The notes below the pieces were generated by a model that searched no databases, had not been told where the DNA came from, and saw only the letters and a program-made list of their open reading frames with translations. From contig JARDZU010000003.1 of assembly GCA_029240695.1 (NCBI GenBank), forward strand, positions 1-36,668: 36,668 bases of DNA. The letters are read 5' to 3'. Of the stretch, positions 4,073-19,076 are shown one piece after another; within the stretch, counting starts at the first letter, position 1, and the number at the start of each line of letters is the position of its first letter. A program made the translations under genes and the position numbers. The stretch is from Acidimicrobiia bacterium (GTDB lineage: Bacteria > Actinomycetota > Acidimicrobiia > Spongiisociales > ZC4RG35).

Positions 4073-5503
4073 GTGGCCAAGGAGGTAGCCGTCCCCCTCA
4101 CCAAAGGCCCCCGCGAGGCGTGTGGGGTCTTCGCCGCCTACACACCCCGGCAACGGGTCTCCAGCCTGATCTACTTCGGCCTCTACGGGCTTCAGCATCG
4201 GGGCCAGGAGTCAGCCGGCATTGCGACATCGAACGGGGAGACAGTCACGGTGTTCAAGGACTTGGGCCTCGTGTCCCAGGTCTTCGACGAGCCCGCGCTC
4301 GCCGGTCTGGACGGTCACCTGGGCATCGGACACACCCGATACTCGACGACCGGCTCCAACAATTGGGCCAACGCCCAGCCAGCACATCGACAGGTCGGTG
4401 CCACGAGCATCGCCCTCGGGCACAACGGGAACCTGACCAACACCCCCCAGCTGGCTGAGCGCCTCGGAATTCGGGGGGCGACGACCGACTCGGACCTCAT
4501 GGCCGAAGGCATCGCCCGGGCCATCGACGACGAGCGCTCCGACCAGCGTGGCCTCGAGATGGCGGTGATGGAGGTGGCCCCTACATGGGAGGGCGCCTTC
4601 TCACTCGTGATCATGGATCAGGGCCACGTCATTGGGTTGCGGGACCCCAACGGGTTCCGCCCTCTCTGCCTCGGCTCATTGCCCGACGGCGGATGGGTTC
4701 TGTCCTCGGAGACTGCCGCCCTCGATCTGGTGGGCGCGAGATTCGTCCGCGAGATCGCGGCCGGGGAGATGGTGGTGATCGACGCAGTCGGGGTGCACAG
4801 CTTCTACCCGTTCTCGGCCACAGACCCGACACTCTGTCTCTTCGAGTTCGTCTACTTCGCCCGGCCCGACAGCCAGATGTACGGGCGCGGGATCCACGCG
4901 GCGAGACGGCAGATGGGCGAGACATTGGCCGCCGAGCACCCGGCCGACGCCGACGTGGTCGTCCCGGTACCCGAGTCAGGGCTACCCGCTGCTCAGGGAT
5001 TCGCCGCCGCCAGCGGTATCCCTTACTCCGACGGCCTGGTGAAGAACCGCTACATCGGTCGCACCTTCATCGAGCCCAGCCAGAGCCTGCGTGATCGAGG
5101 GATCAGGCTCAAGCTGAACCCGATACCGGACAACCTCAGGGATAAGCGGGTGGTCCTGGTCGACGACTCGATCGTGCGCGGCTCGACAACCCGGAAGCTG
5201 GTCCACATGGTGCGCGACGCCGGAGCCACCGAAGTCCATCTCCGCGTGTCTTCCCCTCCTTACCGCTGGCCATGTTTCTACGGCATGGACACATCGGACC
5301 GGAGCACCCTGATCGCGGCGTCCCTCGAGGTCGACGAGATCAGAGAGCACATCGGGGCCGACTCCCTCGGTTACTTGTCATTGCAGGGCCTGCTCGATGC
5401 GACCGGAGTCGCCGACGCCGGGTTCTGCACGGCTTGTCTCTCCGGCAACTATCCGACCGAGGTCCCGGAGGCAGCAGACAAGTTCCAGCTCGAGCGCTCC
5501 TAA
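4073..5503 (+). CDS. purF: Amidophosphoribosyltransferase
   Basis: Propeptide then EACGVF; LQHRGQESAG; GHTRYST; VLVDDSIVRG PRPP motif; Fe-S cysteines CLFE, PCFYG, CTAC. Confidence 0.97.
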   Translation: MAKEVAVPLTKGPREACGVFAAYTPRQRVSSLIYFGLYGLQHRGQESAGIATSNGETVTVFKDLGLVSQVFDEPALAGLDGHLGIGHTRYSTTGSNNWANAQPAHRQVGATSIALGHNGNLTNTPQLAERLGIRGATTDSDLMAEGIARAIDDERSDQRGLEMAVMEVAPTWEGAFSLVIMDQGHVIGLRDPNGFRPLCLGSLPDGGWVLSSETAALDLVGARFVREIAAGEMVVIDAVGVHSFYPFSATDPTLCLFEFVYFARPDSQMYGRGIHAARRQMGETLAAEHPADADVVVPVPESGLPAAQGFAAASGIPYSDGLVKNRYIGRTFIEPSQSLRDRGIRLKLNPIPDNLRDKRVVLVDDSIVRGSTTRKLVHMVRDAGATEVHLRVSSPPYRWPCFYGMDTSDRSTLIAASLEVDEIREHIGADSLGYLSLQGLLDATGVADAGFCTACLSGNYPTEVPEAADKFQLERS

Positions 5504-6478
5504 ATGACCACCTACGGGGAGGCCGGGGTAGATCTGGAAGGCGCCCACCGGCACGTCGAGGCTATCGCCAATCCGGTAACCGCCACGTGGACCGAAAACG
5601 TCATCGGCAACTTCGGTGGCTTCGCGGCGGGCGTCACCATTCCCGCCGGCTACCGCGAGCCCGTGCTGATGATGTCGACCGACGGGGTGGGAACGAAGCT
5701 GGAGCTGGCGAGGAGGGCCGGTCGCTGGGATGGAGTGGGCCAGGATCTCGTTGCGATGTGTGTCGACGACCTCGCCGCGGTAGGGGCGAGACCCCTCGGA
5801 TTCGTCGACTACCTGGCCGTCGGCGCCCTCAACGCGACGCGCGACCGGGCCATCGTCGAATCGGTGGCTGCGGCATGTGCCATCGCCGGGTGCCCCTTGC
5901 TGGGCGGGGAGACCGCTGAGCACCCCGGAGTGATGGAGCCCGATGCCGTCGACCTGGCCGGCGCGGTCATGGGCATCGTGGAGCGTGGCCAGGAGTTGGG
6001 CCCGACCCTGGTGACCGAGGGTGACGTCGTCGTGGGTCTCACCTCACCCAACCTGCGGTCGAATGGGTTCTCACTCGTCAGGGCGCTGTTTGGCGACGAC
6101 ATCGAGTCCCAGGTCGACCGATTTCTCGAACCCTCGGTCATCTACTCACCGGATGTCCTGAGAGCAGTAGAGGGTGGCGGGGTTCGAGCCGCAGCGCACA
6201 TCACCGGCGGTGGGCTGGCCGGGAATCTGGCGAGGGTCCTCCCTCCCGGGATGGGCGCCCACGTGGATACCGGTGCCTGGGAGGTGCCGCCCGTCTTCGA
6301 GACCATTGCGTCACGTGGTGCCCCCGATGCCGAGATGTGGTCCACATTCAACATGGGGATCGGCTTCTGCCTGGTGGTGACTCCAGACGCCGCCGAATCT
6401 GTGATTTCGACTGTCTCCGCCCACGAAGGAAGGGTCATCGGCGAGATCGGCGTCGGTGAAGGAGTTGCGCTCGGGTGA
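5504..6478 (+). CDS. purM: Phosphoribosylformylglycinamidine cyclo-ligase (AIR synthetase)
   Basis: Y.EAGVD, STDGVGTK, DLVAMCVDD, GGETAEHPG, SNGFSLVR, HITGGG, TFNMGIG. Abuts purF (TAA ATG). Confidence 0.97.
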   Translation: MTTYGEAGVDLEGAHRHVEAIANPVTATWTENVIGNFGGFAAGVTIPAGYREPVLMMSTDGVGTKLELARRAGRWDGVGQDLVAMCVDDLAAVGARPLGFVDYLAVGALNATRDRAIVESVAAACAIAGCPLLGGETAEHPGVMEPDAVDLAGAVMGIVERGQELGPTLVTEGDVVVGLTSPNLRSNGFSLVRALFGDDIESQVDRFLEPSVIYSPDVLRAVEGGGVRAAAHITGGGLAGNLARVLPPGMGAHVDTGAWEVPPVFETIASRGAPDAEMWSTFNMGIGFCLVVTPDAAESVISTVSAHEGRVIGEIGVGEGVALG

Positions 6479-7269
6479 AATTCACCGGCGCCTCGGCGGT
6501 GGCACCCGCCGGACAGGGGATCTGGAAAGCAGACGTACAGCCGGACTGGGACATCTTCGGGATCGCGAACGGCGGCTATCTGATGGCCATCGCCGCTCGG
6601 GCGATGTCAGCCGCGGCTGGGGGCCGTCTTCCGGTGAGCGTCACCGCCCATTTCACGAGGCCGGTCGCGGCAGGCGCTGTCATGGTGACGGTGGACCCTG
6701 TGAAAGCGGGTCGCACTTTCTCCACCCTGCGGGCCACCTTGACCGCCGAATCCGATTCCATCTCGCTCCTGGGCAGTTTCGCCGAGCCACAATCCGGCGC
6801 CGTCGAGCCCCTCTATGCGGCAGCCGCTCCACCGGAGATGCCGCCACCAGAGGAGTGCATCCGCGCCGTTCCCTCGGTGGACGGGCCCCTTCCCCCACCG
6901 CTGATGGCCCAGTTCGAAGAGCGAATCCACCCCGAAGACGTCGGGCCGCTGCAAGGTGAGCCCAGCGGCACAGCCCAGATGCGAGGGTGGTTTCGACTCC
7001 ACGATGGTGAGCCGCTGGACGCCTTCACGCTGCTGCTCGCAGCCGACTCCTTCCCACCCGCGGTCTTCAACGCCGACCTTCCCCTCGCCTGGACCCCGAC
7101 CCTGGAGATGACCACCCAGATCCGCGGCGTACCCGTCCCGGGTTGGCTGAGGTGTCAGTTCTCGACGCGTTTCGTGACCGGCGGCCTGCTCGAGGAAGAC
7201 GGGGAGATATGGGACGAGGCCGGCCACCTCGTCGCCCTATCCCGTCAGTTAGCCCTCGTCCCCCGCTGA
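6475..7269 (+). CDS. Acyl-CoA thioesterase-like double hot-dog fold protein
   Basis: W...GIANGGYL, SVTAHF.RP, K.GRTFS, LLAADSFPP, WTPTLEMT, EEDGEIWDE.G.LVALSRQLA. GTGA overlap with purM. Confidence 0.85.
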   Translation: MKFTGASAVAPAGQGIWKADVQPDWDIFGIANGGYLMAIAARAMSAAAGGRLPVSVTAHFTRPVAAGAVMVTVDPVKAGRTFSTLRATLTAESDSISLLGSFAEPQSGAVEPLYAAAAPPEMPPPEECIRAVPSVDGPLPPPLMAQFEERIHPEDVGPLQGEPSGTAQMRGWFRLHDGEPLDAFTLLLAADSFPPAVFNADLPLAWTPTLEMTTQIRGVPVPGWLRCQFSTRFVTGGLLEEDGEIWDEAGHLVALSRQLALVPR

Positions 7270-8259
7270 GAAGGATTCGAGATCGAGGAGCAGCGCGGTC
7301 TTCCTCCTGTCATCGAGGAACGATGAGTTGATCGAGTTGCGGGCGATGACCGTGATCGTGGCATCGTCGAGGCCCAGATCATCCCGGACACCGCGGTAAT
7401 TGTCGCCGATATACCCACCGAAGTACGCAGGGTCGTCGGAGTTGACCGACACCACCAGCCCTGCCTCGATCATCGCGGGAAGCGGATGTCGTGCCAGATC
7501 CTCGACGACCTTCAGGGCCACGTTGGACAAAGGGCACACCGTGAGCGGAACCTTGTCGCGGCTCAGCCTCGCCACCAGCTCCGGGTCCTCGAGGCTGCGC
7601 ACACCGTGATCGATCCGCTCCGCTCCGAGGACGTCGAGGGCGGCTCGGACGTACTCTGGCGGGCCCTCCTCTCCGGCATGGGCGACGGAGCGAAGACCGA
7701 GCTGCCGGGCCCGGGCAAAGGCCCTCTCGAACAGGTGCGGAGGGCGACCGCGCTCCGACGAATCGATCCCGACCCCGATAACCCCGTCGAGGAACGGCTC
7801 GGCCTCCTCGATCGTGGAGACGGCCTCTTCCCCCGACAGATGACGGAGAAAGCACATGATCAGGTCTGCACTGATTCCCCGCCGTCTCCGGCCATCCGAG
7901 ATGGCATCCCGGAATCCCCTCATGAACACTTCGAAGCCGATGCCCCGCCCGGTATGGCTCTGGGGATCGAAGAAGATCTCGGCATGTCGCACCCCATCGT
8001 CGGCAGCCCGGTCGAGGTAGGCGGTCATGAGGTCGTAGAAATCATCCGGAGTGCGGAGGACCTCGCCACCCTGGTAGTAGATGTCGAGGAACGACTGGAG
8101 GTCGCTGAATCGGTAGGCGGCATGGACCTGGTCGATGTCCTCGAAAGGCAGCGACAGGCCGTTTCGGGTGGCGAGGCGAAACATCATGTCCGGCTCCAGC
8201 GTGCCCTCTATATGGACATGCAACTCCGCCTTGGGGAGACGGGTGATCAGATCGTCCAT
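7249..8259 (-). CDS. add: Adenosine/adenine deaminase (probably adenine-deaminase subtype)
   Basis: PKAELHVHIEGTL, EIFFDPQ, VAHAGEEG, RIDHG, TVCPLSN, NSDDPAYFGGY. Confidence 0.92.
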   Translation of the reverse strand: MDDLITRLPKAELHVHIEGTLEPDMMFRLATRNGLSLPFEDIDQVHAAYRFSDLQSFLDIYYQGGEVLRTPDDFYDLMTAYLDRAADDGVRHAEIFFDPQSHTGRGIGFEVFMRGFRDAISDGRRRRGISADLIMCFLRHLSGEEAVSTIEEAEPFLDGVIGVGIDSSERGRPPHLFERAFARARQLGLRSVAHAGEEGPPEYVRAALDVLGAERIDHGVRSLEDPELVARLSRDKVPLTVCPLSNVALKVVEDLARHPLPAMIEAGLVVSVNSDDPAYFGGYIGDNYRGVRDDLGLDDATITVIARNSINSSFLDDRRKTALLLDLESFSAGDEG

Positions 8260-8269
8260 GTCCGAAATC

Positions 8270-10495
8270 TCATTCGAGAGCGATGTCCTGTGGGCGAATG
8301 GGCACCCGATTGAGCTCCTTCCCCGAGGCGGCTCGAATCGCAGCGGCGACCGCCGCCGTCGAGGAGATGGTCGGCGGCTCTCCCACGCCCTTCGCCCCGA
8401 AGGGGCCCCACGATCCCTCCCTTTCGATCAACAGGGCCTCGACGTCGGGTGCGTCCAGGATGGTGGGGAGCAGGTAGTCGGTGAATGTCGGATTGAGAAT
8501 GACACCATCCTTCATCACCAGCTCCTCCATCACGGCCAGACCCACCCCCTGGAGGATGCCGCCTTCGATCTGACCTCGCACCGACTGCGGGTTCAGGGCG
8601 AGACCAACGTCTTGCGCAGTGTCGACACGGACCACCTTGACCAGGCCCAGCTCGGTGTCGACGTCGACCACCGCCCGATGGCCGGCCACGGCGAAGTCGG
8701 CGTGTATCACGCCTTGACCGTTCTCGTCTGGGCCGGTCGTGGGCGGGTGCCGGAAGGTGACTGTCTCTTCCCAGTCTTCCTCAGCGAGGACCGACCAGGA
8801 GACCACTAGCTCATCGCCCTTCCAGACCCCGTCATCGTCGAGTTCCTCACCTTCGTGTCTGTCCAGGACCCTCTGCCGGAGCTTTACCGAGGCCTCGAGA
8901 GTGGCCCCACCGGAGAGCTGGGTCTGCCTAGAAGCCGAGGTGGAGCCGGCTGAGTCGATCTTCGATGTGTCCACGTGGTTCACGTCGACGCGGGAGATCC
9001 CCAGCGCGCTGCGGACTATCTGAGCCAGGACGGTGACCAGGCCCTGCCCGACTTCTATCGCGGCGGTTTCGACGACCGCACCATCAGGAGTAAGGCGAAC
9101 CCTTGCCTGGGCGTAGTCATCGGATCCCTCGGAGAAGCCGAGGTTCTTGAGACCGAGGGCATATCCCACCCCTCTCCGAACGTGATGTGGCTCGGTGGTG
9201 AGACCCGAGCCTCCGGGAAGCTCGCTGTGATGCGCCATCGTTGCCGGTTCCGGAAGAGGCATTGCCTGCAGACTCCGTATCACCTCGATCGTGGGAAGCG
9301 GGGTCTCGATCACCTGCCCGGTGGTCGGCATCGGGTCGCCGGTGCCGAGAGCATTCAGCTCGCGCAGATCGAGCGGGTCCATTTCGAGGGCCGCGGCGAG
9401 CCGGTCCATTTGTGCTTCGTAGGCAAAGCAGACCTGTACCGCTCCAAATCCCCTCATCGCCCCACAAGGCGGGTTGTTGGTGCGGGCTCCCACCCCGTCG
9501 ACTGCGACCGAGTCGCTCCGATATGGCCCGACTGCGAAATAGCACGCGTTGGCCAGAACGGCGGATGTTGTCGAGGCGTAGGCCCCACCATCGATCATCA
9601 CCCGCGCTTCGACGCGGACTAGACGTCCGTCCTCATCGGACTCGTGGCGGTAGCGGAGCCACGCCGGATGGCGGTGGACATGCCCGGTGAACGACTCCGA
9701 GCGGTGATAGACCATCTTGACCGGCCGCCCGGTGTGGAGGGCCAGCATGCAGAGATGGATGTGCAGGTTGACGTCTTCTCTGGCCCCGAAGGCGCCACCG
9801 ATCCCCGTCGGGTGGGCTCGCACCTGATCCGGTCGGAGACCGAGGCTGGCCACCACTTGCTCTTGATCGACGTGCACGTATTGGCTCGTCGCGTATAGAT
9901 CGACACCACCCTGGCCGTCCGGGATGGCGAGACCGGCCTCGGTCCCCAGCGGCGCCTGATCCTGCATCCCGACCTCGTACTCACCTTCGACCACGACGGA
10001 CCCGTGCAAGCCCTGGTCTCCGCGACGGATGCTCAGCCGGCGAAACACCTCGTCACGGTCGTCGGCCTCTTCGGGGTCGGTCCGCGCGTCGAGCTCTTCG
10101 TAGCGAACCTCGACCGCAGCCGCCGCCCTCCTGGCGGTGTCGTCGTCCTCGGCGGCTACCACTGCCACCGGCTCTCCCCAGAACTTGACCTCGTCGCCGG
10201 CCAGAACCGGCTGGTCGGCGTGCTCCAATCCAAACGTAGCCCTCCCCGGGACATCGGCTGCCGTGAGACACGCGTGCACACCGCCGATTGCCAGCGCCGG
10301 GCCCAGGTCGATCGAGACGACGCGTGCCCGGGCGTGGGGGCTACGGACCGTGGCCGCCCAGAGCATCCCCTCGGCTCTCAAGTCCTGGGCGTATTCGAAC
10401 TCGCCACGGAGCTTGGGCACGCCATCGGGACGGAGCGGGGAATCCCGGATCACACCACGCGGCACTCCGACGCGGCGTCCCGTCCTAGTGCTCAT
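8270..10495 (-). CDS. pucD: Xanthine dehydrogenase molybdopterin-binding subunit (PucD-like)
   Basis: VRSPHARA, IGGAFGARED, AMRGFG, EVGQG, TSASRQT, GQIEGG..QG, KGVGEPP (catalytic Glu). Start ATG 10495 overlaps the pucE end. Confidence 0.9.
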   Translation of the reverse strand: MSTRTGRRVGVPRGVIRDSPLRPDGVPKLRGEFEYAQDLRAEGMLWAATVRSPHARARVVSIDLGPALAIGGVHACLTAADVPGRATFGLEHADQPVLAGDEVKFWGEPVAVVAAEDDDTARRAAAAVEVRYEELDARTDPEEADDRDEVFRRLSIRRGDQGLHGSVVVEGEYEVGMQDQAPLGTEAGLAIPDGQGGVDLYATSQYVHVDQEQVVASLGLRPDQVRAHPTGIGGAFGAREDVNLHIHLCMLALHTGRPVKMVYHRSESFTGHVHRHPAWLRYRHESDEDGRLVRVEARVMIDGGAYASTTSAVLANACYFAVGPYRSDSVAVDGVGARTNNPPCGAMRGFGAVQVCFAYEAQMDRLAAALEMDPLDLRELNALGTGDPMPTTGQVIETPLPTIEVIRSLQAMPLPEPATMAHHSELPGGSGLTTEPHHVRRGVGYALGLKNLGFSEGSDDYAQARVRLTPDGAVVETAAIEVGQGLVTVLAQIVRSALGISRVDVNHVDTSKIDSAGSTSASRQTQLSGGATLEASVKLRQRVLDRHEGEELDDDGVWKGDELVVSWSVLAEEDWEETVTFRHPPTTGPDENGQGVIHADFAVAGHRAVVDVDTELGLVKVVRVDTAQDVGLALNPQSVRGQIEGGILQGVGLAVMEELVMKDGVILNPTFTDYLLPTILDAPDVEALLIEREGSWGPFGAKGVGEPPTISSTAAVAAAIRAASGKELNRVPIRPQDIALE

Positions 10496-10949
10496 CAGTC
10501 GCCCCCACTCCCTCCAGGGCGCGGATGATGGCGCCGTACCCGGTGCACCGGCAGATGTTCCCGGCCAGGGCGTCTTTGATCTCGTTACTGCTCGGATGAG
10601 CGTTCCGGGCAAACAGGTCGACCGCGGCCACGACGATGCCCGGTGTGCAGAAGCCACATTGGACGGCTCCAGCGTGGTGCATCGCCTCCTGGACAGGGTG
10701 CAGGCCGTCGTCGGGGCTGACCCCTTCGACCGTGGTCACCGACGAACCGGCGGCATCCGCCGCCATCACCAGGCAGGAGCAGACCAGCTCTCCGTCGAGG
10801 ATGACGCTGCACGATCCACATTCTCCCTGCTCACAGGCATTCTTTGAGCCGGGCAGGCCGAGCTCGTCCCGCAGGAGATCGAGGAGGCTGCCGGGGTTGG
10901 TGACCCGGGCCGTGACCGGTACTCCGTTTACCGTCAGCTCGACGATCAC
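10485..10949 (-). CDS. pucE: Xanthine dehydrogenase 2Fe-2S subunit (PucE/CoxS-like)
   Basis: CEQGECGSC..CSCL, QCGFCTPG, GNICRCTGY. Start chosen at the GTGA overlap with pucC (alternative GTG 10958). Confidence 0.92.
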   Translation of the reverse strand: MIVELTVNGVPVTARVTNPGSLLDLLRDELGLPGSKNACEQGECGSCSVILDGELVCSCLVMAADAAGSSVTTVEGVSPDDGLHPVQEAMHHAGAVQCGFCTPGIVVAAVDLFARNAHPSSNEIKDALAGNICRCTGYGAIIRALEGVGATDEH

Positions 10950-11740
10950 GAGAGACACCTCTCCAGGAGACGTCTGGCCAGGACGCCTGCCCCGTGACGC
11001 CGGTACTCCTCAGTCGACCGGTGATCGGTTATCGGCCGCACTTCTTCGCTGACGAGCCGCTGGAACTCGACCAGATCACCCGCGCTCGGATGGCCGATCG
11101 ACGAGATCATGTTCTCGGCTCCGGTAGCCCTGATGGGGGTGGGGGCCACTGACCCGAGGGCTACCGTGGTCTTGCCGTCGTCGGCCCGGGTGACCACAGC
11201 GCACACAGTGGCTATGACCATGGCGTTTCGGATCCCGATCTTGCCGAAGCATTGCCGCTCGGGCAGGCCGGCGGGCAGGTGGACCGCCATGATCAACTCG
11301 TCTGGCCGTCGGGCCGTCTCCTTGACACCGGTGAAGAACTCCTGCCAGGTCAGCGTTCGCTGTGACGCTGTCGAAGCGAGCTCGATGGAGGCGCCGACCG
11401 CGGCCAGGAACGGATGCCCGTCGCCGGCAGGGCTCGCAGTCCCCAGATTCCCGCCGATCGTCCCGGCATTCCGGATCTGTGGTGAGCCCACGGTGCGCGC
11501 CGCTTCGGCCAAGGCCTTGGGGCCATGGGTCTCGATCCGGCGCCATGTGACGCCTGCCCCGATCCGTTGGCCGTCCCACTCCTTCAGCTCGGCGAGCCGG
11601 CGCAGCCCGATGACACGCTCGGGGCGGATGTGGCCGAAGTTGACCTCGACCATGAGATCGGTTCCCCCGGCCAGTGGGATCGCTCCGTCGCCCAGTCCGG
11701 CGAGGGCCTCATCGATCGAGTTCGGGTGCACGATCTCCAC
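10946..11740 (-). CDS. pucC: Xanthine dehydrogenase FAD-binding subunit (PucC/CoxM-like)
   Basis: LAGGTDL, VGSPQIRNAGTIGGNL..ASPAGD, PITDHRST.EYRR. Confidence 0.92.
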   Translation of the reverse strand: MEIVHPNSIDEALAGLGDGAIPLAGGTDLMVEVNFGHIRPERVIGLRRLAELKEWDGQRIGAGVTWRRIETHGPKALAEAARTVGSPQIRNAGTIGGNLGTASPAGDGHPFLAAVGASIELASTASQRTLTWQEFFTGVKETARRPDELIMAVHLPAGLPERQCFGKIGIRNAMVIATVCAVVTRADDGKTTVALGSVAPTPIRATGAENMISSIGHPSAGDLVEFQRLVSEEVRPITDHRSTEEYRRHGAGVLARRLLERCLS

Positions 11741-11768: not shown

Positions 11769-13124
11769 TTACACAAGTGTCGCGGCAAGCCGGTTGTGCT
11801 CTCTGACCAGAGACGCGGTGTCGACGCCGATCAATTGGCCGCTCTCGATGACCTTCCTTCCGCCGACCCAGGAGTGATCGACCGTCACCGGGGCGCACAT
11901 CACCACCGCCGCCACCGGATCGTGGAGCGCGCCGGCAAAGTCGACCCGGTTCAGGTCATAGGCAATGAAGTCGGCGCACATCCCGGGGGCAAGTCTCCCG
12001 ATGTCGTCACGGCCGAGCACCCCCGCCCCACCTACGGTGGCCAGACCGAGCGCCTGCCGCGCCGTCATCTGCGGCCCCTCGCCGATGCCCGGCGAGACAC
12101 CGAGACGATTGAGCAGGAGCGCCTGTCGGACCTCCCCCATCATGTGCGAGGCGTCGTTCGAAGCCGAGCCGTCGACACCGAGACCCACCCCGACACCCGC
12201 CTCCAGATACCGCGAGACCGGGGCCAGCCCGGAGGCGAGACGCATGTTCGAGGTCGGGCAATGGGCGACACCTGTCCCGGAATGACCCATCCGTCTCACT
12301 TCGTCCTCGGCCACGTGCACGGCATGGGCGTACCAGACATCCGGACCGGCCCAGCCAAGGTCCTCCATGTACTCCACCGGACGACGACCGAACCGGCCAA
12401 GGCAGAATTCCTCCTCATCGGCCGTCTCGGCGAGATGGGTGTGCATGGCGACTTCCAGATCGCGTGCCAATTCGGCGGTCTCTTCCATCAGATCGGTGGT
12501 CACGCTGAACGGGGAGCATGGGGCGAGGACGACCTGCGTCATCGACCCGGGGGACGGGTCGTGGAAGAGGTCGACCACCCGCCGGGAGTCTTCGAGGATC
12601 ACATCATTGGTCTCGACGACAGAATCCGGCGGCAGCCCGCCCTCCGACCGGCCGAGGCTCATCGACCCGCGCGAGACATGAAATCGAACTCCTACCGGGG
12701 CGGCGCCTTCGATTTGATCGTCGACCCGCGAGCCGTTCGGCCACAGATAGTGATGGTCGAAGGCGGTGGTGCAGCCGCTCAACGCGAGCTCGGCGAGACC
12801 AAGACGGGTGGAGACCCGCACATGATCCGGCGTCATCCCCGCCCAGATCGGATAAAGCGTGAGAAGCCAATCGAACAAACCCGCATCCTGGGCACCCGGC
12901 ACTACCCGTGTGAGCGTCTGATAGAGGTGATGATGGGTGTTGACCAATCCGGGGAGGACGACATGGCCGCTGAGGTCGACCATCTCGTCGGCCTCTTCGG
13001 GCAGCTCGGCCGTACGGGCAACCTGCTCGATCCAACCGTCGCGTGCGAACAGACCCCCGTCCTCGATCTCCTCGCCGCCCATGGTGACCAGCACTTCGGC
13101 ATGACGGACGAGCAGGGTTCCCAT
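11769..13124 (-). CDS. 8-oxoguanine deaminase (amidohydrolase superfamily)
   Basis: PGLVNTHHHLYQTLTR, LF.WL.TLYPIW, RGSMSLG.S.GGLPPD, PCSPFSV, HTHLAET, HCPTSNMRL.SG, LGVDGSASND. ATG 13124 follows TAGCTT (13133-13138). Confidence 0.9.
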   Translation of the reverse strand: MGTLLVRHAEVLVTMGGEEIEDGGLFARDGWIEQVARTAELPEEADEMVDLSGHVVLPGLVNTHHHLYQTLTRVVPGAQDAGLFDWLLTLYPIWAGMTPDHVRVSTRLGLAELALSGCTTAFDHHYLWPNGSRVDDQIEGAAPVGVRFHVSRGSMSLGRSEGGLPPDSVVETNDVILEDSRRVVDLFHDPSPGSMTQVVLAPCSPFSVTTDLMEETAELARDLEVAMHTHLAETADEEEFCLGRFGRRPVEYMEDLGWAGPDVWYAHAVHVAEDEVRRMGHSGTGVAHCPTSNMRLASGLAPVSRYLEAGVGVGLGVDGSASNDASHMMGEVRQALLLNRLGVSPGIGEGPQMTARQALGLATVGGAGVLGRDDIGRLAPGMCADFIAYDLNRVDFAGALHDPVAAVVMCAPVTVDHSWVGGRKVIESGQLIGVDTASLVREHNRLAATLV

Positions 13125-13162
13125 CGGCACCAAAGCTAACTGCTGTCTTAGAGTCGCCCGCC
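13125..13162. promoter_or_regulatory. 38-bp divergent promoter region with back-to-back TANNNT boxes
   Basis: Minus strand TAGCTT (13133-13138) is 8 nt from ATG 13124. Plus strand TAGAGT (13149-13154) is 8 nt from ATG 13163. Confidence 0.55.
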
Positions 13163-14488
13163 ATGACTCTGCGCGATGACTCGATGACTCGCTGGGGTGA
13201 ACGTCTCGGGGCGGTGGCGACCCGTCTCGGCACCGACTTCCCGGGCGAAAGCCCCGAACGCCAGCCGGTGCACACCGTGTATGGCGGCGCCCATCTCTTC
13301 TCGGCCAACACAGCGGAACGCTTGGGCGAGTTGTCCCTGGCCGCCCTCGATCGTTGGGCTCCCGCCCCCGAGGACCTGGCTTCCATTCTCGGCCTCCCCG
13401 AATCGCAGGCCGGGCCAGTTCACGATCTCGTGGCCGAGAAATTGAGAAGGGAGCCGGTGGAGGACTTCCGCATCGATTTCGAGGATGGCTACGGGCATCG
13501 GCCCGATGACGAGGAGGACGGGCACGCCCGATCGGCTGCCACCGAGCTAGCCGGTGGCATGACGGCCGGGACGCTCCCTCCCTTCACCGGGATCCGGGTC
13601 AAGTCGCTCTCCGGTGAGCTGCACCGGCGCGCCTTGCGCACCCTCGATCTGTTCGTCACCACAGTCGTGGAGAAGGGGGGGCATCTCCCACCCGGCTTCA
13701 CCGTGACCCTCCCCAAGATCCAGGATGTCGAGCAGGTCCTAGTGCTCGGCGAGGCCCTCGCCGAGCTGGAGCAAGATCTGGGCATCGACCCCATCCCGGT
13801 GGAGCTCATGGTCGAGACTCCGCAGACAGTCATCGACCGGGACGGGACCTCAGGGGTTCGCAAATTCGTCGACGCCGGGCAGGGCCGCGTGCGTGGCGCC
13901 CATTTCGGGACCTACGACTACACGGCATCGCTCACCATCACTGCTGCCTATCAGACGATGACGCATCCGGCCTGTGATTTCGCCCGACACGCATTGCAGG
14001 TGAGCCTGGCTGGGACCGGGGTCTGGATCTCCGACGGGGCGACCAACGTGATGCCGGTGGCACCGCATCGTGGCGAGGAGTTGACCTCGAGCCAGGAAGA
14101 GGAGAACCGCAAGACCGTCCACGATGCGATGCGGCTCCACTACGAGCACATCAGAAATTCGCTGATCCACGCCTATTACCAGGGGTGGGACCTCCATCCT
14201 GCCCAGTTCCCGACTCGCTATGCCGCCGTCTACGCCTTCTTTCTCGAGGGTCTGGACCAGGCCGGCGAGCGGCTCTCCAACTTCGTCGAATCGGCGGCCA
14301 AGGCCACCCTCGTCGGTGAGGTGTTCGACGACGCTGCGACCGGCCAGGGTCTCCTCAACTTCTTCCTACGAGCTATCAACTGCGGTGCGATCGACGAGAG
14401 GGAGGCCACCACACGCAGCGGCCTCACGCTCGATGAGATCCAGACCCGCTCCTTCCTCGCCATCCTGGAGAGCCGGACCGCTGGATAG
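13163..14488 (+). CDS. Uncharacterised CitE/malate synthase/HpcH-superfamily TIM-barrel enzyme (resembles proteins annotated DUF6986)
   Basis: RQPVHTVYGGAH, RIDFEDGYG, GIRVK, TLPKI, LMVETP, HFGTYDY, DGATN, QGWDLHPAQ, FDDAATG. Embedded in the purine catabolism cluster. Confidence 0.8.
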   Translation: MTLRDDSMTRWGERLGAVATRLGTDFPGESPERQPVHTVYGGAHLFSANTAERLGELSLAALDRWAPAPEDLASILGLPESQAGPVHDLVAEKLRREPVEDFRIDFEDGYGHRPDDEEDGHARSAATELAGGMTAGTLPPFTGIRVKSLSGELHRRALRTLDLFVTTVVEKGGHLPPGFTVTLPKIQDVEQVLVLGEALAELEQDLGIDPIPVELMVETPQTVIDRDGTSGVRKFVDAGQGRVRGAHFGTYDYTASLTITAAYQTMTHPACDFARHALQVSLAGTGVWISDGATNVMPVAPHRGEELTSSQEEENRKTVHDAMRLHYEHIRNSLIHAYYQGWDLHPAQFPTRYAAVYAFFLEGLDQAGERLSNFVESAAKATLVGEVFDDAATGQGLLNFFLRAINCGAIDEREATTRSGLTLDEIQTRSFLAILESRTAG

Positions 14489-14491
14489 ATC

Positions 14492-15307
14492 TCAGCGCGA
14501 GACGATGAAACCGATATCGCCGTAGGGCTGGCTGACCGGCTGGAAGACCGTGTGCTCGTCCTCGATCCCGAATCTGGACAGGTCGTAGCTCAGGTGATGC
14601 TGATTGGGGAGTCGAAAGTCGACCTCCTCGATCTCTGGAATCGCTCCCAGCAAGGCCTCTGCCATCATCCATCCCTGGTGTTGTACGGACTCCGAGTGTT
14701 CGCCCATGAAACTCTCGATCATGGCTTCACGCGCCGTCTCCCAGGTGGCCGTGGTGTCGGCCGGGGTGGCTGAATATCGCCACACCGCCTTCACAGACGT
14801 GGCCAGGATCCGCTCGTCGGTCTCGGGAAGCAAGGTGAACTCGTCCCGGGGGAAACCGGCGAAGGCCGAACCCGTGGTCTTGAGGACCACCAATCCGTCC
14901 ACTCCGGCCCACACCCCAGCATTGGTCCCGGCGACCACCCGGCCCAACCGTCGCTCTGAGCCTCCACCGACGAAGCCCGACGGGCCCCTCCGGTTCCAGA
15001 TGAGCTGGGATACAGAGACGTCCGCTGCGCTGATGCCTTCACGCTCCAGGAAGCGGTCACAGAGGACAGCAGCGAACGCCTCCAGGTCTCGATTGAGATG
15101 CTCCTGAGCCAGGCCGTAGACGGTGTTCTTCATGGTGTCGGTAGGCAGAACGCCCCTGTTGTCACCTCGGACATGGGCCGCCTCGACGTCACCCTGGAGC
15201 AGCACCTGGACCGTCAAGTCCAGAAAATCGTCACCCGACTCGGTGCGGAGGATCTTCGACACCCGAACATCGGACTTGCCCCATCGGTTCTCGCCGAGCC
15301 GAGCCAT
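14492..15307 (-). CDS. pucL: Urate oxidase (cofactor-independent uricase)
   Basis: N.WGKSDVR, VLPTDTMKNTVY, VLKTTGSAF.GF, ERILAT, SESVQH, LPNQH, QPYG.I. Confidence 0.93.
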   Translation of the reverse strand: MARLGENRWGKSDVRVSKILRTESGDDFLDLTVQVLLQGDVEAAHVRGDNRGVLPTDTMKNTVYGLAQEHLNRDLEAFAAVLCDRFLEREGISAADVSVSQLIWNRRGPSGFVGGGSERRLGRVVAGTNAGVWAGVDGLVVLKTTGSAFAGFPRDEFTLLPETDERILATSVKAVWRYSATPADTTATWETAREAMIESFMGEHSESVQHQGWMMAEALLGAIPEIEEVDFRLPNQHHLSYDLSRFGIEDEHTVFQPVSQPYGDIGFIVSR

Positions 15308-15624
15308 CAGCTACCCCGGTAGGTCGTGTACCCGTAGCTGCTGAGCAAAAGCGGGACGTGATAGTGGTCCGGGGCATCGTCGAGGTCGACGATGACGTGC
15401 ACCTCGGGGAAGAAAGGATTGCCGGCATCACCCGTGGCAAAAACGAGACGGTAGATGCCGGCGCCCAAGGCGACGCCGAGTGCGGCGACGCGCCCATCGT
15501 CATCTGTCGTTCCTTCGCTGACGTGCTGCCAGCCAGCGTCCGATGAACGCTCCAGCGTCACCTTCACCCCGGACGCGGGCTGACCGGACTCTGTGTCGAG
15601 AACGTGTGTGCTGAGGCCGGTCAT
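15307..15624 (-). CDS. uraH: 5-hydroxyisourate hydrolase (transthyretin-like)
   Basis: LSTHVLDT..G.PA, T..DGR, HYHVPLLLS.YGY, C-terminal YRGS. Confidence 0.96.
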   Translation of the reverse strand: MTGLSTHVLDTESGQPASGVKVTLERSSDAGWQHVSEGTTDDDGRVAALGVALGAGIYRLVFATGDAGNPFFPEVHVIVDLDDAPDHYHVPLLLSSYGYTTYRGS

Positions 15625-17054
15625 CGGGCGTCTCCAAGGCAGAGCATGCGACGCAGTCTGGTCTCCGTGATCGCCCGTTGCTCCGCGGCTGCGTTGGCCA
15701 TCTCTTCGTCTCGCGTGTTGCCGAGTCGGCTGCGGGCGATGTCGAGCATCTCCTGAGCGGTCTTCCCGGAGGCATAGATGATGTAGGTGAAACCGTGGGT
15801 GGATTCGTACTCCTTGTTCGCCTCAGCCAACGCGGTCAGCAACGACCCTTCTGCATCGGCGGTGCCACTCTGCTCGCGATCCGCCTCGTGGTCTCCCCTC
15901 TCGCCGATTCGGGGGTGACCGGCGAAGGCCTCGAGCCAGTCGCTCTCATCCAGCGCATCGAAGGCGACGCCCGCTGCGGCCAGCACGGCATCGCCGTCAG
16001 CGAATGGCCGGTTCGCGATCATCCGGTCCACCCAGTTCGTGGAAGCGCAGGCGGTCTGGAAGAAGCGCCGCCCTTCCTCGTCGAACAGTGCGTTCAGGTA
16101 TGTGAGCCGAAGCTTCTCGGCTCCATCAGGGTCGGGCCGGCCCCTGACACGGAGACGTGCCACCCCGCCGTCGGGATGGATGTCTAGACGGACGAAGCGG
16201 GCTCGAGCAGGGCGATCGAGTATCAAGAGATTGACTGCGTCCGGCTTCGCCTCGGCCCGGTCGACCACCACCTCCCAGGTCTGGCCGTCATTCGAGACCT
16301 GGACCGAGACCCAGCCAGGTGCGTTTCCCTTGAAATGCCGGGTGTCGACCTCGAGGGAGTCGACTGCTCCGGGCAATCCGAGGCGGAAGACGGCCCAGTC
16401 GTTGCCCGGCCCGCGTCGACGCTTGGTCTCCCAGCCGTCCCACATCCCAGCCGGCTCGGTGGGCCGGAGGAGATTGGAGGGTGGTGAGTAGTGGACATCG
16501 GAGGCATCGAGGGCCTCGCCACCGACAACGGACGAAGCCAGGTCGATACCCCCGTCGTCGAGGCACACCTCATGTCGGGCAGGTATCGGGTCGCCGTCGA
16601 GGCGCAGGCGCGCCACCCCTCCGTCGGGGAAGATGTTGAGACGAATATGGGTGACCCGATGCGGGTCGTCGACCTCGAAGCTCGAGGTGGTGTCACCGGA
16701 GAGGGAGGTACGGGGGATGATCTGGACCCAGTCGGCCGCCTCGATTCGCTCGTCCCCACCCACGCCGCAGGCCTCCAACGAGAAGGATTCGGGGTAATTG
16801 CCGGTGAAATAGGAGGTGTCGACCGTCACCGAACGGACTCGCCCCGCCACTCCGAGGGCGAGAACACACCAGTCGTGGCCCGGCTCGCGACGTCTCCGGG
16901 TCTCCCAACCGTCCATCCATTTCCCCCGTTCGGTGTAGAGGTCCTCCTTCCACACCGGATTTGCCGTTTGCAGGAGATTGCGCGCTTCGGCGAAGAACTC
17001 GTCGTTGCAGGCAACCACCCGCCCGCCAACTGCCTCAGATATCAGATCGGTCAT
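15621..17054 (-). CDS. alc: Allantoicase fused to C-terminal OHCU decarboxylase (UraD) domain
   Basis: Two allantoicase repeats (MDGWETRRRR / WDGWETKRRR, DTSYFTGN / DTRHFKGN, PDGGVARLR twice). From about 16106 to the stop, a UraD domain (FAGHPRIG, EQSG, N.EYE...GF.YII, EQ.AIT..RL). Confidence 0.9.
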   Translation of the reverse strand: MTDLISEAVGGRVVACNDEFFAEARNLLQTANPVWKEDLYTERGKWMDGWETRRRREPGHDWCVLALGVAGRVRSVTVDTSYFTGNYPESFSLEACGVGGDERIEAADWVQIIPRTSLSGDTTSSFEVDDPHRVTHIRLNIFPDGGVARLRLDGDPIPARHEVCLDDGGIDLASSVVGGEALDASDVHYSPPSNLLRPTEPAGMWDGWETKRRRGPGNDWAVFRLGLPGAVDSLEVDTRHFKGNAPGWVSVQVSNDGQTWEVVVDRAEAKPDAVNLLILDRPARARFVRLDIHPDGGVARLRVRGRPDPDGAEKLRLTYLNALFDEEGRRFFQTACASTNWVDRMIANRPFADGDAVLAAAGVAFDALDESDWLEAFAGHPRIGERGDHEADREQSGTADAEGSLLTALAEANKEYESTHGFTYIIYASGKTAQEMLDIARSRLGNTRDEEMANAAAEQRAITETRLRRMLCLGDAR

Positions 17055-18351
17055 TGCGCCTCAACATCCTGCCAGCAATGGGGCCGACGCTCGTCCCGTC
17101 GAAGACAGTGACACCTGCGAGGATGGTCGTCACGACCGAACCACGAAGTGACATCCCCTCGTAAGGAGTCATGGGGTGACGATGTTCGAGGTCGCCCCCC
17201 CGGACGCGGGTGACGCCGTCAGGATCCCAGACAACGAAGTCGGCATCCATCCCGACCTCGATCGAGCCCTTGCGATCGTCGAGCCCGGCTAGGCGCGCCG
17301 GCTCGAGGGCCAACCATCGAGTCAGCTGCGGCAGCTCGATCTCACGCTCCACCGCCCCAGTCCACGTTGCGGGCAAGCGCAGCTGTAGTGAGCCGATACC
17401 TCCCCAGGCCTCACCGAAGTCCCCATCGTCGAGACGCTTGACCTCGGCCGGGGCCGGAGAGTGATCGGAGACGATCATGTCCAGGCTCCCATCCATCAGA
17501 CCATCCCACAGGGCGTCGCGGTGCTCGGCGGCCCGAATCGGTGGGGCGCATTTGAACGAGGTGGCGCCGGCGCCGATTTCTTCGGCGCAAAACGTCAGAT
17601 AGTGGGGGCATGTCTCCCCAGTGAGCGAACCGGGCCCATCGGCCACCGCTCTCATCGCCTCGGCCGACGACACGTGAAGCACGTGAACCCTGGCCCCGGT
17701 GGCCCGGGCCAGATCTGCGACCGTGGTGACCGCGGCGGCCTCGCCGTCGGCTGGACGGGTCTCCAGATACGACTGGTAGTCGGTCGGATCGCCCGATAGT
17801 CGGAGGATCCGGGTCGGGTCCTCGGCGTGCACGAGTGAGGGAACCTCGAGCTCCCGCATGAGGGGGAGGGCAGAGGCGAGCTCAGAGGGGCTCACCAGCG
17901 GGAACTCCTCGACTCCCGAGTCGACCAGGAACGACTTGAAGCCACAGACGCCCTCGGCCACGAGAGGGCCGATCTGATCTTCGGATCCCGGGATGAGGCC
18001 TCCCCAGAAGGCCACGTCGGCACTCAGCTTCCCCTCGGCCGCGGCTCGCTTCTTCGACAAGGCGCGGACGTTGACTGTCGGTGGAATCGAATTTAGAGGC
18101 ATGTCGACGATCGTCGTCGTCCCCCCGGCGACTGCGGCTCGTGTCGCCGTCTTGAACCCCTCCCATTCGGACCTACCCGGCTCGTTGACATGGACGTGAG
18201 AATCGACCAGTCCGGGCATCACGACCAGGTCGCCGAAGTCGACCTCGGCCCGGCCCTCACCGATATCGACGATCACGCCCTGGTCGATCCGTATCGATGC
18301 CGGGCGCACCTCCTCGCCCAACACCACCCGGTTGCTGCCGATTATCGACAT
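17035..18351 (-). CDS. allB: Allantoinase
   Basis: PGLVDSHVHVNEPGRSEWEGF, AGGTTTIVDMPLNSIP, GFKSFL..SGVEEF, ETCPHYL, FKCAPPIR, SDHSP, AWGGI. Start ATG 18351 (alternative TTG 18360). Confidence 0.95.
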   Translation of the reverse strand: MSIIGSNRVVLGEEVRPASIRIDQGVIVDIGEGRAEVDFGDLVVMPGLVDSHVHVNEPGRSEWEGFKTATRAAVAGGTTTIVDMPLNSIPPTVNVRALSKKRAAAEGKLSADVAFWGGLIPGSEDQIGPLVAEGVCGFKSFLVDSGVEEFPLVSPSELASALPLMRELEVPSLVHAEDPTRILRLSGDPTDYQSYLETRPADGEAAAVTTVADLARATGARVHVLHVSSAEAMRAVADGPGSLTGETCPHYLTFCAEEIGAGATSFKCAPPIRAAEHRDALWDGLMDGSLDMIVSDHSPAPAEVKRLDDGDFGEAWGGIGSLQLRLPATWTGAVEREIELPQLTRWLALEPARLAGLDDRKGSIEVGMDADFVVWDPDGVTRVRGGDLEHRHPMTPYEGMSLRGSVVTTILAGVTVFDGTSVGPIAGRMLRRNDRSDI

Positions 18352-18450
18352 CGGTGGCAAAAGTTACCGGTGCAGCCTTCCTTTCTTGCCGTCCCGACGA
18401 ACGAGGTGGTAAGTAGCGTGATCGCCGTCGCCCAGCCCAAAGGAGTCGCC

Positions 18451-18978
18451 ATGGAGTCGGTGAGTAGCAGCCCGCCGGATCGGACCATCAACTACGCCTT
18501 CATTCTCGGCGGTGTCACCGCCCTGATCTTCGGGATCATCCTCCTCGTCCGCCAGGAAGAGGCATTGGCCCTGCTTATGGTGGTCCTGGGATTGTGGTGG
18601 CTCATACAGGGCGCCTTCATGATCTTCGCAGTCTTTGTCGACCGCACCGACATGTGGTGGAAGCTGATAATCGGCGTCTTGGGCGTCGTGGCCGGCTTCC
18701 TCGTCCTGACCAACCCCGGCGAGGCCGCCGATGTGTTCCAAGGGGTCATTGGCGTCATTCTCGGCATTATCGGAATCGCGGTGGGAGTGACCGCCCTCAT
18801 CGGCTCCTTCCGAGGCGGTGGCGTCGGTGCCTTCGTGTTCGGGGCCGTCAGTGTCCTTATCGGCCTCCTCATCCTGTTCAACGCCCAGTTCTCCACAGAG
18901 CTCCTGATAACCCTGTTCGCCGTCCTCCTTCTCATCGACGGTGTGGCCGGTATCTATCTGGGCATCAAGAACCGGTAG
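18451..18978 (+). CDS. HdeD / DUF308 family membrane protein
   Basis: Six hydrophobic helices in repeated G..LIFG.ILL hairpins. AAGGAG RBS before ATG 18451. Confidence 0.8.
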   Translation: MESVSSSPPDRTINYAFILGGVTALIFGIILLVRQEEALALLMVVLGLWWLIQGAFMIFAVFVDRTDMWWKLIIGVLGVVAGFLVLTNPGEAADVFQGVIGVILGIIGIAVGVTALIGSFRGGGVGAFVFGAVSVLIGLLILFNAQFSTELLITLFAVLLLIDGVAGIYLGIKNR

Positions 18979-18991
18979 CGACGACCGCATT

Positions 18992-19032
18992 CCGTTGCAG
19001 GGCGTCACTGATAGATGACGCCCTGCATTCGG
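18992..19032. terminator. Strong hairpin (terminator or REP-like element)
   Basis: Perfect 12-bp stem TGCAGGGCGTCA (18996-19007) / TGACGCCCTGCA (19016-19027), 8-nt loop, followed by TTCGGTTT. Confidence 0.6.
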
Positions 19033-19076
19033 TTTGGCCACTTCTACCGGCGCCAACGAGCCGGTAGCATCCTCCG

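Follow-up and report, generated by a model that had tools for sequence, protein, structure and literature searches.

The stretch of DNA analysed here (the window: 36,668 nucleotides of an Acidimicrobiia bacterium, GenBank assembly GCA_029240695.1, contig JARDZU010000003.1, positions 1 to 36,668) holds a cluster of purine-catabolic genes and, within it, a gene of the Pfam family DUF6986. Gene context, phyletic co-occurrence and the precedent of a zebrafish enzyme lead us to give a probability of roughly 60% to this gene encoding a Mg-dependent (S)-ureidoglycolate lyase (EC 4.3.2.3), which would convert ureidoglycolate to glyoxylate and urea. The cluster reads as follows.

7249..8259, minus strand: adenosine deaminase (NF006850, 494 bits)
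8270..11740, minus strand: xanthine dehydrogenase subunits, Mo-binding (PF02738/PF20256/PF01315), 2Fe-2S (PF01799/PF00111) and FAD (PF00941/PF03450)
11769..13133, minus strand: 8-oxoguanine deaminase (NF006055, 666 bits against a cut-off of 532)
13125..13162, no strand: intergenic region of the divergent pair 8-oxoguanine deaminase/DUF6986, 38 bp with the ATG start of the deaminase
13163..14488, plus strand: DUF6986 gene, candidate Mg-dependent ureidoglycolate lyase, 441 aa
14492..15307, minus strand: factor-independent urate hydroxylase (uricase; TIGR03383, 253.5 bits; PF01014)
15307..15624, minus strand: 5-hydroxyisourate (HIU) hydrolase (PF00576, 108 bits)
15621..17054, minus strand: allantoicase, which makes ureidoglycolate and urea, fused to OHCU decarboxylase (PF03561, two repeats, and PF09349; TIGR02961, NF010372)
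17035..18360, minus strand: allantoinase AllB (TIGR03178, 481 bits)

The DUF6986 open reading frame (ORF) opens with ATG and closes with TAG at 14486–14488. To one side of it stand adenosine deaminase, the three xanthine dehydrogenase subunits and 8-oxoguanine deaminase; to the other stand uricase, HIU hydrolase, the allantoicase–OHCU decarboxylase fusion and allantoinase. From xanthine down to ureidoglycolate, each step of the pathway has a recognised gene beside DUF6986, while the step from ureidoglycolate to glyoxylate has none. The deaminase may start at a TTG at 13133 or at an in-frame ATG at 13124–13122, leaving 29 or 38 bp, respectively, before the DUF6986 ATG. The uricase stop, a TGA on the minus strand at 14492–14494, falls 3 bp beyond the DUF6986 stop, so that the two genes, on opposite strands, lie tail to tail. 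An earlier interpretation made from the letters alone (the sequence-only reading) had described a 441-aa gene inside a purine cluster, set off from the deaminase by a 38-bp divergent gap and ending 3 bp from uricase, and all of this was found as described, the gap length holding with the ATG start.

In the genome from which the window comes (2.89 Mb in 282 contigs, 93% complete), neither AllA (PF04115), the established family for the reaction proposed here, nor a ureidoglycine aminohydrolase was found, and no allantoate or ureidoglycolate amidohydrolase scores above cut-off. A canonical malate synthase A (358 bits) adjoins isocitrate lyase on contig C190. The sequence-only reading had pointed out that the window holds no malate synthase and no ureidoglycolate lyase. 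That is correct for the window, which has neither malate synthase nor AllA, but with malate synthase A elsewhere in the genome the window is not short of that enzyme in a meaningful sense.

The window protein matches DUF6986 (PF22484) with 580.8 bits against a cut-off of 27, its residues 18–432 covering profile positions 4–406 of 408. A match to the Pfam family HpcH_HpaI stays below the gathering score (20.2 bits against 25, E = 3.9e-4), no match to the malate-synthase family PF01274 appears at E up to 1, and there is none to PF04115. The NCBIfam search (release 20, which holds no DUF6986 model) gave as its sole match one of 17 bits to a malyl-CoA lyase model, and no malate synthase. When a profile of 56 sequences was searched against the PDB, the best match was 3r4i (1.9e-7), followed by malyl-CoA lyases (5e-6 to 4e-4) and malate synthases A and G (~1e-3); the alignments pair DFEDG, GIR, LPK, vEt, YDY, GWDlHP and DDaAt with the motifs of the superfamily. 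The predicted model is a TIM barrel with a C-terminal lid, superposable on solved superfamily members; CitE-like enzymes and malate synthases make up all of its top structural matches, and malyl-CoA lyase and CLYBL resemble it more closely than any malate synthase does. The protein is a distant relative within the CitE/malyl-CoA lyase/HpcH superfamily with a Pfam family of its own, and DUF6986 is a separate branch of the CitE/malyl-CoA lyase/malate synthase TIM barrels. Membership in this superfamily, as proposed by the sequence-only reading, is supported by profile, fold and motifs.

Comparison with individual relatives sharpens the separation. Malyl-CoA lyase (Rhodobacter sphaeroides Mcl1, 4l9y/4l9z) and human CLYBL (5vxc) belong to a different Pfam family, and are only 14–17% identical to DUF6986, whose genomic context is one of purine catabolism rather than C1/C2 assimilation or the 3-hydroxypropionate cycle; DUF6986 has some 100 residues more than malyl-CoA lyase (the model spans 387, against 314 in the chain). 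The top Foldseek matches, the uncharacterised CitE-like proteins 3r4i (Burkholderia xenovorans) and 3qqw (Ralstonia eutropha), are 16–21% identical and ~120 residues shorter, the profile match to 3r4i covering the N-terminal motifs as well as the C-terminal GW..HP and the D-containing helix. To malate synthases A, G and H there is no Pfam match, the profile E value is only ~1e-3, and hhalign against the malate synthase of the window's genome aligns only the core of residues 178–298. AllA is of an unrelated Pfam family, so that DUF6986 would be its analogue and not a member, with the same reaction proposed and the same operon position, adjoining allantoicase.

DUF6986 is a large family: clustering at 90% identity gave at least 8000 clusters with a score, and clustering at 50% identity gave 2358 (E up to 1e-3) or 626 (E up to 1e-30). 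In source records the relatives go by “citrate lyase beta subunit”, “DUF6986 family protein” or “phosphoenolpyruvate kinase”, and metagenome-assembled genomes (MAGs) of Acidimicrobiia supply the nearest of those with a name. No paper on DUF6986 turned up in the literature searched, a body that did not extend to subscription papers and supplements, where a prior characterisation may exist; the passages available from a 2026 review make no mention of the family (PMC13751858). Nine longer, seemingly fused DUF6986 proteins were considered as Rosetta-stone evidence and set aside: each is a single-member cluster from one contig with partial coverage, probably an artefact of gene calling.

Conservation was read from an alignment of 56 diverse DUF6986 members, 36–57% identical to the query. 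The sequence-only reading had matched six motifs, in order, to the malate synthase/CitE barrel and likened a seventh, FDDAAT, to the MEDAAT motif of malate synthase A rather than the MVD.P of CitE; all seven lie exactly where it had put them, FDDAAT at 14324–14341 included:

13472..13486, plus strand: IDFED (D105, E107, D108), invariant in 56/56; aligns with DCEDG of 3r4i
13589..13603, plus strand: GIRVK, with R145 the putative catalytic Arg; G143 and R145 invariant; aligns with GVRIH of 3r4i
13706..13717, plus strand: TLPK (K185), K185 invariant; aligns with IPKV/LPKI of malyl-CoA lyases and 3r4i and YLPK of the genome's own malate synthase
13808..13819, plus strand: MVET, with E218 a putative Mg ligand, invariant; aligns with the Mg-ligand Glu strand of malyl-CoA lyases (LIET/IIES) and of the own malate synthase
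13904..13921, plus strand: FGTYDY, with D252 a putative Mg ligand; G249 and D252 invariant; aligns with GAADF of 4l9y (Asp168 region; PMC3832036) and GRWDY of the own malate synthase
14183..14200, plus strand: GWDLHP, W342 and D343 invariant; aligns with KWAIHP/MWSIHP of malyl-CoA lyase and 3r4i
14324..14341, plus strand: FDDAAT, with D389/D390 the putative general acid on the C-terminal lid; aligns with HDRAS of 3r4i; A392 invariant

In full, D105, E107, D108, E118, G143, R145, R156, K185, E218, R242, G249, D252, W342, D343, R352, R370 and A392 are invariant in 56/56; D389 is Asp in 55 of the 56, and D390 is Asp in 50 and Glu in the remainder. Since the motif residues hold across such diverse members, the motifs define the family and are not a product of chance. 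E218, D252, D105/E107/D108 and R145 align with the corresponding motifs of 3r4i, 5ugr and 4l9y; in CitE-like enzymes, the available passages of one structural study describe the D-x-E-D motif as holding Mg-bound waters and orienting the catalytic Arg (PMC3832036). The structural match of the predicted model to 4l9y reaches residue 406, against residue 315 of the chain, and counting offsets from the alignment ranges would place D390 near Asp299, the catalytic Asp on the lid of R. sphaeroides malyl-CoA lyase. The malate-synthase motifs that the sequence-only reading had cited can be seen in the genome's own malate synthase A, which carries ADFED, YLPK, LIET, NAGRWDY, GTWVAHP and MEDVAT. Aligned to it by hhalign, the family profile pairs over residues 178–298 only, with a probability of 61%, and the FDDAAT/MEDVAT pair falls outside that alignment. 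Tyr251, the residue before the Mg-ligand Asp, is Ala in malyl-CoA lyases and was considered as a block to acyl-CoA; the idea was dropped, as the own malate synthase A has Trp there (GRWDY) and uses acetyl-CoA.

Gene context beyond the window was surveyed with a degenerate-pattern scan of species-representative genomes, which found 585 relatives; the best 80 loci were kept and, being closest to the query, are biased toward its subfamily. They include Acidimicrobiia, Acidobacteriota, Gemmatimonadota, “Deltaproteobacteria”/Myxococcus, Bacteroidota, Melainabacteria, Elusimicrobia, Chthoniobacteraceae, Dormiibacterota and others. Neighbours within 10 kb of DUF6986, counted by tblastn with the window's own proteins, were:

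HIU hydrolase: 57/80 loci
OHCU decarboxylase: 54/80 loci
allantoicase: 50/80 loci
allantoinase: 48/80 loci
xanthine dehydrogenase subunits: 23–29 of 80 loci
cofactor-free uricase: 24/80 loci
8-oxoguanine deaminase: 5/80 loci

At least one urate or allantoin gene lies within 10 kb in 58 of the 80 loci, as the sequence-only reading had anticipated, and in 22 of the 29 with full 10-kb flanks; 12 of the 22 loci with no such gene are shorter than 12 kb. AllA occurs within 10 kb of DUF6986 in 0/80. In a Flavobacteriales MAG (L081), the operon comprises PuuD, allantoinase, allantoicase, OHCU decarboxylase, HIU hydrolase and DUF6986; here the steps down to ureidoglycolate are all assigned, and DUF6986 is the sole gene left over. 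Two actinobacterial loci place the gene next to malate synthase itself: in L090 a minus-strand operon runs malic enzyme, malate synthase A (TIGR01344, 755 bits), DUF6986 and ureidoglycine aminohydrolase, and in L097 the order is allantoinase, allantoicase, OHCU decarboxylase, HIU hydrolase, uricase, DUF6986, malate synthase A. As a second malate synthase in one operon makes little sense, these loci fit an enzyme that feeds malate synthase from the product of allantoicase or ureidoglycine aminohydrolase.

A role for DUF6986 as the urate oxidase of loci that lack uricase was considered and rejected, since L081 and L023 carry a PuuD-type membrane urate oxidase (PF06181). The copy in L081 (4661–6280) has no detected cytochrome c domain; that in L023 (13305–15098) has one. 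ORFs in the loci were chosen with a GC3-weighted picker, which missed some genes, such as the ureidoglycine aminohydrolase of L092, recovered by tblastn.

A FastTree phylogeny was built from 96 DUF6986 sequences, those of the window and of 95 out of 102 loci (98 with a DUF6986 match, 4 with allantoicase only), leaving out loci with no DUF6986 match, a truncated ORF or an ORF below 380 aa. The window protein falls in an Acidimicrobiia clade whose members all have purine context. Members with no such context are mostly interspersed among those that have it, the exception being a long-branch acidobacterial subclade (L098–L101).

Phyletic profiles extend these observations to whole genomes, the counts including two unpublished ones (G088 in Actinomycetota, G329 in the Acidobacteriota-like phylum):

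Actinomycetota, 301 genomes: full-length DUF6986 in 28, allantoicase in 39, both in 25, AllA in 6
Acidobacteriota-like (phylum of G301), 221 genomes: DUF6986 in 30, allantoicase in 23, both in 22, AllA in 9
Myxococcus (phylum of G302), 106 genomes: DUF6986 in 23, allantoicase in 26, both in 15, AllA in 15

The three actinobacterial DUF6986 genomes without allantoicase (G009, G165, G111) all have an (S)-ureidoglycine aminohydrolase scoring above 300 bits, which directly adjoins DUF6986 in G009 and G111; together with the 25 that have allantoicase, 28/28 actinobacterial DUF6986 genomes thus carry an enzyme that makes ureidoglycolate. Full-length DUF6986 is found in 0/6 of the AllA-bearing Actinomycetota. 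In the Acidobacteriota-like phylum, DUF6986 accompanies allantoicase in 22 of 23 genomes, and the allantoicase of the sole exception has internal stop codons. AllA matches in allantoicase-bearing genomes are weak throughout these two phyla (2/39 and 4/23, respectively).

The Myxococcus phylum, where 13 of the 15 AllA matches are strong, shows the two families side by side. In 8 genomes DUF6986 shares a contig with allantoicase and is no more than 7 kb from it, and in 6 loci AllA is within 3 kb of allantoicase, with no contig carrying both; the loci consist either of allantoicase with AllA or of allantoicase, OHCU decarboxylase, HIU hydrolase and DUF6986. Strict exclusivity of AllA and DUF6986 fails at the level of the genome, both being present in 8 of the 26 allantoicase-bearing genomes, but the positional either/or beside allantoicase holds. 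One MAG (G621) carries both arrangements, with allantoicase followed by OHCU decarboxylase, HIU hydrolase and DUF6986 in one locus and allantoicase followed directly by AllA in the other (L114/L115, contigs C312 and C354); the GC contents of the two contigs differ (0.615 and 0.547), and the bin may therefore mix two organisms.

A precedent for the proposed activity comes from zebrafish (Danio rerio), whose malate-synthase-like protein (MSL/UGL) was shown by experiment to be a Mg-dependent (S)-ureidoglycolate lyase. The available passages of that study report an (S)-specific, urea-releasing enzyme with a kcat/KM of 2.7e4 per M per s, in which the glyoxylate site is conserved and the acetyl-CoA site is not; it is a peroxisomal protein of ~62 kDa from the malate synthase orthogroup, and its clade is reported there to hold eukaryotic sequences only (PMC10120013). 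As far as these passages describe MSL, DUF6986 resembles it in superfamily fold, in its association with uricase and allantoicase and in keeping the glyoxylate-binding core, but differs in having 441 aa, in not being a member of PF01274 and in being structurally nearer to malyl-CoA lyase. Given a eukaryote-only MSL clade, DUF6986, if it has the same function, would have been recruited independently, out of the CitE-like branch.

A mechanism can be proposed by analogy with malyl-CoA lyase. In malyl-CoA lyase, as the passages available from the structural study have it, Mg binds the carboxylate and hydroxyl of the substrate, an Arg handles the hydroxyl proton and a lid Asp protonates the leaving enolate (PMC3832036). 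Ureidoglycolate and malyl-CoA share a glyoxylate-derived HO-CH-COO moiety, and with the leaving group CH2-CO-SCoA swapped for NH-CO-NH2, the unchanged catalytic set would make a ureidoglycolate lyase. With Mg coordinated by E218 and D252, ureidoglycolate supplied by the neighbouring allantoicase would bind the metal by its carboxylate and C2 hydroxyl, in parallel with the glyoxylate-derived half of malyl-CoA. R145, oriented by D105, would take or polarise the hydroxyl proton, whereupon the C2–N bond would be cleaved and the leaving ureido nitrogen protonated by the C-terminal acid D389/D390. The products would be glyoxylate and urea, the latter in the chemical place of the acetyl-CoA enolate, and the glyoxylate would pass to the separate malate synthase A of the genome.

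Several observations weigh against this assignment. In the genome of the window, three FAH-family and two Ldh_2-family genes of unassigned specificity lie on other contigs; a ureidoglycolate lyase of the FAH type and a ureidoglycolate dehydrogenase of the Ldh_2 type (AllD) are known, and the gap at ureidoglycolate is therefore likely rather than proven. To our knowledge, nearly all characterised members of the superfamily use acyl-CoA, and the conserved C-terminal Asp suits CoA-enolate chemistry just as well. Among the 273 Actinomycetota genomes with no full-length DUF6986, 14 have allantoicase; one of these (G136) has a DUF6986 fragment and several are fragmented MAGs, but three are complete genomes of one genus (G069, G139, G152) with neither DUF6986 nor AllA. 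Allantoicase is missing from 8 of the 23 DUF6986 genomes of the Myxococcus phylum, and both allantoicase and ureidoglycine aminohydrolase from 8 of the 30 Acidobacteriota-like ones. Four acidobacterial genomes with DUF6986 and allantoicase also have a weak AllA match (36–38 bits; 4 of the 9 AllA matches), and the 26 Myxococcus-phylum genomes with allantoicase divide into 8 with AllA and DUF6986, 7 with DUF6986 only, 4 with AllA only and 7 with neither. In the two genomes examined of a Streptomyces-like genus (g41; L088, L089), DUF6986 has no purine genes as neighbours within ~10 kb, and in G054 DUF6986 is 5.6 Mb from allantoicase. Related genomes are not independent, so that the co-occurrence counts overstate their statistical weight. 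Ureidoglycolate also breaks down spontaneously, according to passages of the zebrafish study (PMC10120013).

The alternative closest to the sequence-only reading, whose headline was a compact malate synthase isoform, is a CoA-dependent enzyme that condenses purine-derived glyoxylate and so assimilates it, either a malate synthase or a malyl-CoA lyase, possibly with a thioesterase. The closest solved structures, malyl-CoA lyases and CLYBL, are all acyl-CoA enzymes, and the Claisen/aldol catalytic residues, the C-terminal Asp among them, are all conserved in DUF6986 when set against those that the available passages describe (PMC3832036). The same passages have malyl-CoA lyase contacting CoA mainly through backbone and a hydrophobic pocket, and passages of the 2026 review note that allantoin clusters can hold dedicated malate synthases, such as yeast DAL7 (PMC13751858). 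Malate synthase was found in 38 of 58 DUF6986 genomes examined (23/26 Actinomycetota, 14/29 Acidobacteriota-like, 1/3 others), and the 20 in which it was not found, 15 of the 29 Acidobacteriota-like among them and mostly MAGs of unstated completeness, keep this alternative alive, as does L091, where DUF6986 directly follows malic enzyme with no malate synthase in the locus. We nevertheless consider it unlikely. The anti-correlation with aceB/glcB that it would lead one to expect does not appear in these counts; the window's genome has its own malate synthase A beside isocitrate lyase, malate synthase A adjoins DUF6986 in L090 and L097, and all 8/8 genomes of the Streptomyces-like genus have both, malate synthase lying ~5 kb from allantoicase in G054. 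Added to this are the lack of a malate-synthase Pfam match and an HpcH_HpaI score short of its cut-off, and the co-occurrence itself, which follows the enzymes that make ureidoglycolate, with DUF6986 not adjacent where AllA adjoins allantoicase. A CoA-dependent role would moreover leave the ureidoglycolate step without an enzyme. The malate synthase headline is accordingly given up; of the secondary suggestion of the sequence-only reading, a malyl-CoA or ureidoglycolate lyase, context, profiles and precedent favour the latter, and the former is kept only as a rival.

Also improbable, in our estimation, is action on some other ureide-linked small acid, be it as an HpcH-type glyoxylate/pyruvate aldolase (4-hydroxy-2-oxoglutarate), as an allantoate, ureidoglycine or oxalurate enzyme, or in the salvage or repair of side products. 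The weak HpcH_HpaI match points this way, as do the eight acidobacterial DUF6986 genomes that lack both enzymes making ureidoglycolate (among them the long-branch L098–L101, with unrelated neighbours), the joint presence of DUF6986 and AllA in Myxococcus-like genomes and the divergent pairing with 8-oxoguanine deaminase in the lineage of the window. Yet HpcH-type aldolases lack the C-terminal lid with its conserved Asp and score far lower than the CitE-like enzymes and malate synthases that make up the top structural matches; the operons already contain dedicated enzymes for allantoate and ureidoglycine, and the context-free members are for the most part scattered among context-bearing ones in the tree. 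A further variant would couple both half-reactions in one active site that keeps the whole machinery of malyl-CoA lyase (Arg, Mg site, lid Asp): the enzyme would expel urea from ureidoglycolate and join the glyoxylate still bound to Mg to acetyl-CoA, making it a malyl-CoA or malate synthase that releases urea. It would explain the conservation of the lid Asp and the 20/58 genomes with no malate synthase found, and glyoxylate, toxic when free, would not escape from the enzyme, though we regard so composite an activity as very unlikely. Ureidoglycolate lyase thus stays our preferred assignment, and we see in DUF6986 the strongest candidate at present for a ureidoglycolate lyase in bacterial lineages where AllA is scarce.

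Some further features of these loci may be recorded. The allantoicase (two repeats)–OHCU decarboxylase fusion of the window is one 477-aa gene whose two steps are not consecutive in the pathway; in most related loci (54/80) matches to OHCU decarboxylase stand directly after allantoicase. The large-subunit ORF of xanthine dehydrogenase (GTG at 10657; region 8270–10958, minus strand) overlaps the 2Fe-2S ORF by ~170 bases, and its real start probably lies further downstream than that GTG. Just downstream of allantoinase, a 230-aa ORF (18364–19056, minus strand) ends the row of minus-strand genes; it has no Pfam or NCBIfam match, and L012, the closest relative, holds its only counterpart (46% identity). 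At 4073–6478 on the plus strand, ~1–3 kb upstream of the catabolic cluster, are two genes of purine biosynthesis, one amidophosphoribosyltransferase-like and one AIR synthase-like, making genes of purine synthesis and breakdown near neighbours. Neither a urease alpha subunit nor a urea carboxylase was found above cut-off in the 93%-complete genome, despite the urea that allantoicase, and DUF6986 if it is a lyase, would release; the urea may be excreted, purine breakdown then yielding only carbon and the nitrogen freed by the deaminases.

Elsewhere, the allantoicase loci of the three complete genomes of one genus named above (L107–L110; G139, G069, G152) hold allantoin permease and racemase genes, and L107, the only one of the four with Pfam-scanned flanks, also has a PuuE-type deacetylase-fold gene, an adjacent class I/II aminotransferase and urease genes. 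In an Acidobacteriota-like genome (G469:C1:611303-615853), DUF6986 is split in two frames and adjoins an allantoicase in three pieces; either the two genes have decayed together or the assembly is in error here. A context-free DUF6986 of G418 (L103:6189-8888) stands next to phage portal and capsid genes and may lie beside or inside a prophage.

Most of the sampled Actinomycetota and Acidobacteriota-like genomes that carry allantoicase have no recognised gene for turning ureidoglycolate into glyoxylate, and DUF6986 is present in about 9–22% of the sampled genomes of the three phyla (28/301, 30/221 and 23/106). Should DUF6986 be the ureidoglycolate lyase, the bacterial pathway from purines to glyoxylate would be closed outside the lineages that use AllA, and annotation would be improved for a family now labelled, among other things, “citrate lyase beta subunit” or “phosphoenolpyruvate kinase”. 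The malate-synthase/malyl-CoA-lyase scaffold would then have been recruited twice to serve as a C–N lyase, with malate synthase as the starting point in eukaryotes and the CitE-like branch in bacteria.

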